UHGV virus genome: UHGV-0260790
From: a virus
Length of the DNA stretch: 28,535 nucleotides
Strand: one strand, 5' to 3'
The notes beneath the pieces are model-generated. The model saw only the letters and a program-made list of their open reading frames with translations. It searched no databases and was not told where the DNA came from. Position numbers and translations under genes: made by a program. Below, one piece after another: positions 1 to 28,535 of the stretch (its first letter is position 1; each line of letters starts with the position of its first letter).

Positions 1-138
1 TCCGAGACGAACGCGAAAGCGTCGGAAACCAGCGCAGAATCCTCAAAAACGGCTGCCGCATCGTCCGCCAGTTCGGCGGCGTCATCGGCATCATCGGCGT
101 CTGCTTCAAAAGATGAGGCGACCAGACAAGCGTCCGCA
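1..138 (+). other. Inverted copy of an internal stf coding segment (wrong strand relative to the gene)
   Basis: Plus-strand frame 1 from nt 1 reads SETNAKASETSAESSKTAAASSASSAASSASSASASKDEATRQASAA, which matches the expected continuation of lambda Stf after the minus-strand gene breaks at nt 139. Confidence 0.75.
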
Positions 139-173
139 GCGCTGGTTTCCGACGCTTTCGCGTTCGTCTCGGA
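1..173. repeat. Fold-back inverted repeat at window start: arm 1-35 is the exact reverse complement of arm 139-173, spacer 36-138; left arm touches the window edge and may extend beyond it
   Basis: Base-by-base comparison: reverse complement of 1-35 (tccgagacgaacgcgaaagcgtcggaaaccagcgc) equals 139-173; pairing fails at 36/138. Confidence 0.9.
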
Positions 174-12336: not shown

Positions 12337-13089
12337 CGCTTTATTACCATCCTCAGTTGATGCTGCAGCGCATAGCCCAGCTCTTTCGGAAGACGTTCAC
12401 GCCGTATCCGCTCAATATTTTGTTTAAACGCCGTGGTCAGCGGCACCGCCATCGGGATTTTCACCACATCAATGGGGTAACGGTTTTTCCCGGTCCTTTC
12501 GCGCCGCAGGCGTCGTAAAAAGGGGCAGCGTTCATCCCTGAAAGGTGGCGGCAGCGTGCTTGTGGTGGGTAACCGTCGTATTCCCGGCGCGTTTATTCAG
12601 CAACTGAAAAATGGCCGGTGGCATGTCATGCAGCGTGTGGCCGGGAAAAACCGTTACCCCATCGATGTGGTGAAAATCCCGATGGCGGTGCCGCTGACCA
12701 CGGCGTTTAAACAAAATATTGAGCGGATAAATACGACGGTTACCCACCACAAGCACGCTGCCGCCACCTTTCAGGGATGAACGCTGCCCCTTTTTACGAC
12801 GCCTGCGGCGCGAAAGGACAACCCGCGCATTACCCAGCTTGATTACGGGCAAATCCCCCCGGTTAACTTTGATTCTGGCCTGCGGATTTTTGACCGTGGC
12901 CCTTTTCAGCCTGGCCCTTTCCTTTACCAGTTTCCGGCGTACCTTTGTCTCACGGGCAACCTGTGACGCCGACTGCGATATCGCGGATGAAGCAACGCGG
13001 TTAATGGCCATTGCGGCGGCACCAGGCACCGCCGTTTTGCTGATACGGCAGAGGTTTTCAATGGCCTGCTCAAGACCTTTTATGGCCAT
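12333..13089 (-). pseudogene. Z: Tail completion protein Z disrupted by a 178-nt fold-back (inverted duplication) insertion; predicted product has 120 native residues then out-of-frame sequence, stop at 12532
   Basis: Minus ORF 12532-13089 reads MAIKGLEQAIENLCRISKTAVPGAAAM...SVLVVGNRRI then junk YPLNILFKRRGQ...; the next Z residues (PGAFIQQLKNGRWHVMQRVAGKNRYPIDVVKIPMAVPLTTAFKQNIERI) are on the PLUS strand at 12583-12729; the Z C-terminus (NRYPID...[24 protein letters not shown]) resumes on the minus strand at 12493-12336. Joining rc(12730-13089) + 12583-12640 + rc(12333-12493) gives exactly 579 nt, 192 codons plus stop, the length of lambda Z. Confidence 0.85.
12405..12819. repeat. Composite fold-back inside Z: arm P 12405-12493 pairs with P' 12641-12729 (89 nt, 1 mismatch); arm Q 12493-12582 pairs with Q' 12730-12819 (90 nt, exact); unique core 12583-12640. 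Layout P-Q-core-P'-Q'
   Basis: Manual reverse-complement comparison of the listed coordinates; arms share a single nucleotide (12493) at the junction. Confidence 0.9.
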
Positions 13090-23617: not shown

Positions 23618-23947
23618 TAATTTCCGGCGTTATTTTTAGTTAATTTAAATTAAACCATCGAATTATAGACCCCCCATATTTTAGTTTCTCATTTAATTTG
23701 TGAAGTAGATCTCTATTTTTATCTGAACTTTTTCTATCGAAACCTATTTATGGCTCTTATTTGAACAAAAATAAACCTATTAGCTAATTTATATTAATGG
23801 CTGTTATTTATGGGGGGTCTATAATTCGATGGTTTAATTTAAATTAACTAAAAATAACGCCGGAAATTAGAGCCATAAATAGGTTTCGATAGAAAAAGTT
23901 CAGATAAAAATAGAGATCTACTTCACAAATTAAATGAGAAACTAAAA
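23618..23947. repeat. Composite fold-back in the S-to-porin intergenic region: X 23618-23678 pairs with X' 23809-23869 (61 nt exact); Y 23679-23757 pairs with Y' 23869-23947 (79 nt exact); unique core 23758-23808. Layout X-Y-core-X'-Y'
   Basis: Manual reverse-complement comparison; AT-rich; arms share one nucleotide (23869) at the junction, same topology as the Z fold-back. Confidence 0.9.
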
Positions 23948-24038: not shown

Positions 24039-25121
24039 ATGAAAAAATTAACAGTGGCAATTTCTGCTGTAGCTGCATCAGTACTGATGGCGATGTCTGC
24101 TCAGGCAGCTGAAATTTATAATAAAGACAGTAACAAGCTGGATCTGTACGGGAAAGTTAATGCTAAGCACTACTTCTCCTCTAATGATGCAGATGATGGT
24201 GATACTACTTATGCCCGTCTTGGCTTCAAAGGTGAAACCCAAATCAACGATCAACTGACTGGTTTCGGTCAGTGGGAATATGAATTCAAAGGCAACCGCG
24301 CTGAATCTCAAGGTTCCTCCAAAGATAAAACCCGTCTTGCCTTCGCTGGCCTGAAATTCGGTGACTACGGCTCCATCGATTACGGCCGTAACTACGGTGT
24401 AGCATACGACATCGGTGCGTGGACTGACGTCCTGCCAGAATTCGGTGGTGACACTTGGACTCAAACAGATGTGTTCATGACTGGTCGCACCACTGGTGTT
24501 GCAACTTATCGTAACAACGACTTCTTTGGTCTGGTTGATGGTCTGAACTTTGCTGCTCAGTATCAGGGTAAAAATGACCGCACTGACGTAACTGAAGCTA
24601 ATGGTGATGGTTTCGGTTTCTCCACTACTTATGAGTATGAAGGATTCGGTGTAGGTGCAACCTATGCTAAATCTGATCGCACTAATAATCAGGTTATCTA
24701 CGGTAACAACGGTCTGAATGCTTCTGGTCAAAATGCTGAAGTATGGGCAGCTGGTCTGAAATATGATGCGAACAACATCTATCTGGCCACCACCTATTCT
24801 GAAACCCAGAACATGACTGTTTTTGGTAATAACCATATTGCCAACAAAGCACAAAACTTCGAAGCTGTTGCACAATATCAGTTCGACTTCGGCCTGCGTC
24901 CATCCGTTGCTTACCTGCATTCTAAAGGAAAAGACTTGGGTGTTTGGGGTGATCAGGACCTGGTTGAATATGTTGATGTAGGTGCAACCTATTACTTCAA
25001 CAAAAATATGTCCACTTTTGTTGACTACAAAATCAACCTGATTGATAAGAGCGATTTCACGAAAGCATCTGGCGTTGCTACCGATGATATCGTTGCTGTA
25101 GGTATGGTTTACCAGTTCTAA
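24039..25121 (+). CDS. nmpC: Outer membrane porin, OmpC/OmpF/NmpC family, prophage-encoded moron
   Basis: 360 aa ORF with signal peptide [23 protein letters not shown], mature N-terminus [18 protein letters not shown]-terminal ...VAVGMVYQF; AAGGG RBS; opposite strand to Q/S/R as for nmpC in DLP12. Confidence 0.9.
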
Positions 25122-27183: not shown

Positions 27184-27370
27184 GCTTCACCTCCGCAGAG
27201 GTCAAACGCTGGATACAATATATCGCAGGTGCATTTCTGCATCTGTGGAGGGAGAAGAGAGTTTGGATTGTGTGTGCGCATAAACGTCCCCGTTTAGCGC
27301 AGAAGTCACCGGAGTTGTTCAGGCTCCGATGACATGATTATGGCGAGTTGATTATCGCAAATCAAAGGTT

Positions 27371-27727
27371 TTAATTGTGCTTTATTCCTTCAAGCGTTGC
27401 CTTCATACCAACCAAAGAAATGTTTAGCTCTCCAACTTTCTCAGGGCTATATAATTCAGAATGAAGCCAATATTCTGATTTATCTAAACATCTTTTAGCC
27501 AGCTCTCGATCAAAGTCTACGACTTGGGAAGACGCTTCATACCAAAGCCTATAAAGTTTTTCTTCTTCGTTTGGGTTATTAGGCTCACCACGTTTTAATT
27601 TTTCAGTATATAAAATTGTTGAATAAATCGCAGGAGTTAATCCAGTGATTGCCCTCTGCCGCAGATCGGATTTGTTTGTTATCCACCCCAACAGACGATC
27701 TCCCATCCATGTGATAATTGTATCCAT
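27371..27727 (-). CDS. Hypothetical protein, AT-rich orphan ORF (possible moron)
   Basis: 118 aa ORF MDTIITWMGDRLLGWITNKSDLRQRAITGLTPAIYSTILYTEKLKRGEPNNPNEEEKLYRLWYEASSQVVDFDRELAKRCLDKSEYWLHSELYSPEKVGELNISLVGMKATLEGIKHN; GAAGGG RBS 8 nt upstream of ATG; visibly lower GC than flanking genes; no family recognised. Confidence 0.6.
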   Translation of the reverse strand: MDTIITWMGDRLLGWITNKSDLRQRAITGLTPAIYSTILYTEKLKRGEPNNPNEEEKLYRLWYEASSQVVDFDRELAKRCLDKSEYWLHSELYSPEKVGELNISLVGMKATLEGIKHN

Positions 27728-28146
27728 GCTTTAGCCCTTCTTAGTAAATAGTGTGTAGGGCGACTGAAGGACCGAGTTTATGCTTTTTCGCATTGCTTTC
27801 AGTTAGTACACCGGTATCGCACCGGAAACAATCCTACGGCAAATTGGTTGTCTGACCTCTCGGTTTTTCGTGCATTAACCGATACCCACTACAGTCTCGG
27901 CGAAAGCTGCACACCCCCAGGGTGTACTGGTAGCACTCGGCACAGCCTAGCACGCCACTTTCTTCTCACTATCCAGTCTAATTTTATCCCCTAGTCAGAC
28001 ACTCAGATGTAGTGCTCCGCAGCGGCATGCGGGGGAATACAAAAACTCGGACAAAATTGGGCCCTCCTTTTTGAATCACTCGCGGGGATGTAGTTATTAA
28101 TACATGGAAAAAGATCTGTTTTCAAATCCAACATTATATGGTTTCA

Positions 28147-28535
28147 ATACCACGGGGTGGCTATGTGTTTCTCATTGTTAATTGGAATCTACTGTAATCG
28201 ATCCGAACGTAAATGCGGCAAAACTCGACTCCACTTATCATCCTGCCACGGCCGGAATTTTACATGTGCCGTCGGCACAGTTGGTGTGGCGGCCTCAGTC
28301 CGGAACAATTTGAAAACAAGAACCTCGCTTAGGCCTGTGTCCATATTACGTGGGTAGGATCAAATATCCCCAGATACTCAATAAGGCACAGGCAATCCTT
28401 GCCAGAGAAACGGCACATGTAAAATTCCGGCCGTGGCAGGATGATAAGTGGAGTCGAGTTTTGCCGCATTTACGTTCGGATCGATTACAGTAGATTCCAA
28501 TTAACAATGAGAAACACATAGCCACCCCGTGGTAT
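28147..28535. repeat. Perfect 126-nt inverted repeat: arm 28147-28272 pairs with arm 28410-28535, spacer 28273-28409; right arm ends exactly at the window edge and may extend beyond it
   Basis: Reverse complement of 28410-28535 equals 28147-28272 at every position checked; pairing fails at 28273/28409. Confidence 0.9.

Follow-up and report, generated by a model that had tools for sequence, protein, structure and literature searches.

The perfect inverted repeat that closes the UHGV virus genome UHGV-0260790 is very probably an artefact of sequence reconstruction and not a structure of the organism's DNA, as judged by comparing the sequence with its close relatives. The whole stretch of DNA analysed, hereafter the window, comprises 28,535 nt. 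By means of a repeat search and our own check, the arms at 28147-28272 and 28410-28535 were found to be exact reverse complements over 126 nt, with 0 mismatches and an arm-to-arm spacer of 137 nt, as the preliminary description had stated. The arms extend neither inward nor outward beyond this length, and the right arm reaches the final base of the window, 28535; it is probably the end of the sequence that makes the repeat stop at this position. The chance expectation of a perfect 126-nt inverted repeat in 28.5 kb is about N^2 x 4^-126, effectively zero. As single-stranded DNA, the region gives a fold of -185 kcal/mol, compared with -47 ± 4.6 kcal/mol in shuffled sequences (z = -30).

A lambdoid, DLP12-like prophage of E. 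coli makes up the window. Its gene order starts with the side tail fibre, lom, J, tail genes, head genes, terminase, bor/iss and lysis genes, and ends with the porin, quuD, rusA, ybcO, ninE, ybcN, a small hypothetical gene and a P22AR C-terminal-domain gene, the annotation of the last being taken from reference record L002. The porin gene (24039-25121) encodes an OmpC/NmpC-like protein of 360 aa that is identical in thousands of public contigs, and the Bor/Iss and Lom homologues that the prophage also carries are ordinary DLP12-like cargo. Many complete genomes are 100% identical to window positions 27300-28272 and cease to match exactly at 28272; past this point, the complete reference genomes continue with the P22AR C-terminal-domain gene and then ybcK. 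The left arm (28147..28272, plus strand) is genuine prophage sequence in its correct place, and many complete E. coli genomes contain it, colinear and at 100% identity. The earlier placing of the repeat in ORF-poor DNA is only partly right, given that the left arm covers, at 28189-28272, the final 84 nt of the minus-strand P22AR C-terminal-domain gene, together with 42 nt past its stop.

Everything to the right of 28272 belongs to a single block of 263 nt (28273..28535, minus strand), the size of a read or fragment, which comprises the spacer and the right arm and stands reverse-complemented. Flipped back, it consists of the 126-nt arm, 47 nt of prophage sequence and 90 nt of an IS3 terminus. 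The IS3 portion (28273..28362, minus strand) matches an annotated IS3 end in reference record L001 and ends precisely at the terminus of the element, ...GGTAGGATCA (on the other strand, TGATCCTACC...), a sequence with thousands of copies across E. coli genomes. The 47-nt piece (28363..28409, minus strand) follows directly after 28272 in the real genome and is inverted here, and the right arm (28410..28535, minus strand) is a second, inverted copy of 28147-28272. Window 28363-28535 is the reverse complement of the reference from 47 nt past the equivalent of 28272 back through the arm.

The natural order of these pieces was recovered from independent assemblies. Isogenic draft and metagenome contigs were found by exact-protein look-up with the J protein and the portal protein; the same look-up with the porin returned unrelated complete genomes only, this protein being too common for the purpose. 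Three sequences are of particular use: L004 (NCBI GCA_016672265.1), L022 (ENA ERZ28597589 scaffold_548) and L028 (metagenome contig ULWN01029740.1), the last of which was found by a search for the IS3/phage junction. In L022, the order is simple, with the arm ending ...ACATGTGCCGT, the 47 nt running from TTCTCTGGCAAGG... to ...GGGGATATT, and IS3 following as TGATCCTACCC...; the same order is present in L028. Window positions 28316-28535 correspond at 100% to positions 1-220 of L022, in an orientation opposite to that of the remaining window, and likewise to L028. The IS3 part of L022 begins TGATCCTACCCACG..., and the contig stops about 53 nt into the element. The real locus thus reads as prophage up to 28272, 47 nt more of the P22AR C-terminal-domain gene, and then an IS3 insertion, which splits the gene 47 nt past 28272 (L022 1-100; L028 5690-5783). 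This insertion, of which one IS3 flank was recovered but neither the other flank nor the target-site duplication, was found in two independent metagenome assemblies and in 0 of 5,426 complete E. coli genomes. Assemblies break at the right end because of the IS3 insertion there; to judge from its coordinates, the NCBI contig behind L004 appears to end within about 3 nt of the IS3 junction.

The folded arrangement itself was found nowhere else. It occurs in none of the 5,426 complete E. coli genomes and in no record of the phage collection, and a 50-mer spanning the junction is absent from the viral, metagenome and genome contig collections. Furthermore, it is absent from the independent near-identical assemblies, namely L004, L022, L028 and six other contigs. 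An unfolded sequence of 28,060 nt was prepared by flipping back four inverted blocks in the window (described below) and removing the duplicated overlaps. Its comparison with L004 (15,350 nt) and with L022 (21,602 nt) gave 100% identity, in each case with 0 mismatches and 0 gaps, and these two contigs together cover unfolded positions 1-28017. Against L028, 1 mismatch was found in 5,783 nt, and altogether seven further contigs from NCBI, ENA, Logan and the metagenome collection, L028 included, show 1 to 6 differences from the unfolded sequence and are colinear with it. The simple, non-duplicated order, which the preliminary description had named as evidence against a genuine repeat, is in substance what these base-identical assemblies of near-identical strains contain, and a long cruciform-forming palindrome in the genome, as had also been proposed, is unlikely.

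These comparisons bear directly on whether the arms could be the terminal inverted repeats of a small IS- or MITE-like element, or the crossover sites of a recombinase switch. Such a reading would suit two long and perfect arms around a short core, with an IS3 end in the spacer and a serine recombinase gene (ybcK) nearby in the reference prophages. It can nevertheless be set aside almost entirely, as the arm is single-copy gene sequence that occurs once and in one orientation in every reference, the spacer is the natural downstream sequence, merely inverted, and no related genome has a second arm, whichever the orientation. The IS3 piece represents one end of an IS3 insertion of full size and does not belong to a 389-nt element. 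No recurring unit with target-site duplications, as expected of an IS or MITE, was observed, the 389-nt unit being in no genome searched; nor is there a sign of an invertible switch, as the related genomes hold one copy of the arm and the 47-nt segment in one orientation only. Known IS terminal repeats share with this structure two inverted arms, a short core and, here, IS3 sequence inside, but 126-nt arms are far longer, their sequence is that of a single-copy host-phage gene, and the IS3 fragment forms one end of a separate, ordinary insertion. The earlier suggestion that the arms are the ends of a small inverted-repeat element is likewise contradicted by single-copy phage gene sequence that is colinear with the reference prophages up to 28272, where the matches stop.

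An inverted repeat exactly at a sequence end also recalls the hairpin telomeres of linear phages and plasmids of the N15 type. Such telomeres are palindromes without a spacer and require a protelomerase. Here, unlike in hairpin telomeres, a non-palindromic spacer of 137 nt lies between the arms, and the locus is internal and simple in the related reference chromosomes; moreover, no protelomerase was found among the annotated genes of the reference prophage.

The terminal repeat is not the only one of its kind in the window. A repeat search over the whole window returned five long inverted pairs at three places besides the target. These are a pair at 1-35/139-173, two interleaved pairs at 12405-12493/12641-12729 and 12493-12582/12730-12819, and two more interleaved pairs at 23618-23678/23809-23869 and 23679-23762/23864-23947. 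In the last pair, an apparent arm mismatch at 23758/23868 was rejected, as it reflects only a chance match over which the repeat search ran on; the exactly matching arm measures 79 nt. Each place resolves into one inverted block. At the left window end, the block at 1..141 (minus strand, 141 nt) overlaps the following forward sequence by 35 nt (139-173) and lies in the side-tail-fibre gene, where isogenic NCBI contigs run on past this point. The internal block at 12494..12729 (minus strand, 236 nt), with duplicated overlaps of 89 and 90 nt, breaks the Minor_tail_Z gene, which encodes an intact product of 192 aa in isogenic contigs; in the window, it is reduced to a chimeric ORF of 185 aa (12532-13089, minus strand), the product of which is absent from the public protein index. 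The second internal block, at 23679..23868 (minus strand, 190 nt), has duplicated overlaps of 61 and 79 nt and is intergenic, between the holin and porin genes. Contigs L022, L023, L024 and L028 pass straight through this site at 23.7 kb.

With the target, there are four blocks (141, 236, 190 and 263 nt), and both window ends consist of such blocks. Their common layout is A - rc(A M B) - B, in which rc denotes the reverse complement and the overlaps with forward sequence are 35 nt, 89 and 90 nt, 61 and 79 nt, and 126 nt, respectively. The two internal blocks bridge 58 and 51 nt that are uncovered by the forward pieces. The whole window can thus be read as rc(F0)-C1-rc(F1)-C2-rc(F2)-C3-rc(F3), that is, as seven concatenated strings in which every F has the size of a read and a true overlap with its neighbours, but stands on the wrong strand and untrimmed. 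The structure falls on sequence ends or assembly break points, its dimensions are those of reads or fragments, and the right end adjoins multi-copy IS3. The guess that the repeat is a fifth fold-back proved well founded, the target being of the same kind as the other fold-backs of the window.

The junctions and the base sequence of the blocks provide further evidence. Junction microhomology at the six junctions amounts to 3, 1, 0, 0, 1 and 0 nt, as expected of random blunt joins. A candidate 7-nt microhomology with IS3 at 28266-28272 was rejected, since it was a BLAST extension with 2 mismatches, and base-by-base comparison gave a blunt join. A common motif was looked for at the breakpoints and none was found, which makes a site-specific enzyme unlikely. 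The sole true base difference between the window and the isogenic assemblies, at position 12663, lies inside an inverted block, 66 nt from the junction; the forward copy of the same base, at 12471, is correct. This difference looks like an uncorrected single-read sequencing error.

The same features were weighed against the possibility that the rearrangements are real and arose in vivo in this isolate, as inverted segments between duplications (dupINVdup or fold-back type), left in the prophage by template switching during replication. In form, the layout A - rc(A M B) - B agrees with a dupINVdup, in which an inverted segment is flanked by inverted duplications of both its ends, and nothing in the sequence alone forbids such a rearrangement. 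A spacer of 137 nt would also lessen the instability of a palindrome. Nonetheless, this origin is very unlikely: it calls for five events in 28.5 kb on a background that shows 0 point differences when compared with independent assemblies, none of the other assemblies of the lineage has these events, and the joins are blunt, unlike those of replicative switching, which normally relies on microhomology. In addition, two of the events fall exactly on sequence ends, one breaks an otherwise intact tail gene, and the base error is confined to the inverted copy. The dupINVdup and fold-back variants of human and cancer genomes are single, large and heritable, typically with junction microhomology, unlike the five events of about 200 nt observed here, which have blunt joins and are absent from isogenic genomes. 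It is even less likely that all five fold-backs are real and represent a recent burst of microhomology-free inverted duplications of about 140-260 nt in one prophage of one isolate. Such a burst would have to be very recent, because no point mutation separates the prophage from its relatives, and it would imply a process not known so far, such as a phage- or IS-associated activity that nicks, flips and religates DNA.

Among the ways in which an artefact may arise, an operation of software on strings, during assembly or gap filling, is favoured with some reserve. This origin is suggested by the joins, which are blunt, and by the blocks, each of which behaves like one uncorrected read. At the right end, a read-sized string of 263 nt with the true downstream sequence has been attached the wrong way round. 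Its overlap of 126 nt with the contig end was left untrimmed and is the right arm, the new sequence that came with it is the spacer, and the repeat stops at 28535 with the end of this string and of the contig. The opposite end of the contig and two internal joins were affected in the same way. The responsible step could be, for example, contig extension, gap filling, or the conversion of a graph path to sequence with a strand bug. This model gives no account of why the forward pieces break at those four places. The length of the terminal arm also counts against it: no self-repeat in the window is longer than 126 nt, no 127-mer recurs, and 126 is k-1 for k = 127, which hints at an origin in a de Bruijn graph more than in the pasting of strings, but may be coincidence.

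The arm length leads to a second route, in which fold-back chimeric molecules or reads, formed in amplification or library preparation, or an unsplit concatenation of read 1 and read 2, were threaded by a de Bruijn assembler with k = 127. The terminal arm would then measure 126 nt as the path halts on re-entering its own 127-mer, in line with a window in which a 126-mer is repeated and a 127-mer is not. The turn-around distances at the fold-backs, 101-148 nt, fall in a narrow, insert-like range. Furthermore, inverted joins between nearby segments are the dominant type of chimera in multiple displacement amplification (MDA); as in the window, stretches of one molecule that lie a short distance apart become linked with one of them inverted (Lasken and Stockwell, 2007; PMC1855051). 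Complementarity of at least 2 bp was present there at 93.5% of the proximal inverted junctions. Unlike in those MDA chimeras, five of the six junctions in the window are without such complementarity and only one has it. The left terminal arm is just 35 nt, so the k-1 relation fails at that end. Each internal block would also need two matched chimeric junctions that return the path to the forward strand, which would rarely happen twice in 28 kb, and the graph assembler would have to have passed over the true path, which has full depth, in favour of the chimeric one. The chimeric-read route is thus ranked second, after an origin in software, and is the less likely of the two, with a limited chance of being correct.

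As an artefact of software or of chimeric reads, the structure is closest to an inversion-type misassembly or chimeric contig end of draft and metagenome assemblies, in which a local segment is reverse-complemented and missing from independent assemblies of the same genome, at contig ends and next to a multi-copy IS, the kind of place at which assemblies normally break. It differs from the usual case in that whole read-sized blocks are affected, with untrimmed overlaps of 35-126 nt on both sides, four times in 28.5 kb. Literature searches returned nothing specific on an artefact of exactly this form. Its significance is mainly one of quality control, as the four flipped blocks give rise to long inverted repeats that are spurious, to the truncation of a tail gene and to ends that are only falsely palindromic, and scans of this data source for hairpins, invertible switches, telomeres or MITEs would flag such blocks. 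The signature can be screened for as perfect inverted repeats at contig ends, layouts of the form A - rc(A M B) - B, spacers of about 100-150 nt and blunt joins. The underlying biology of the locus is an ordinary, routine insertion of IS3 in the P22AR C-terminal-domain gene of the prophage, and nothing else.
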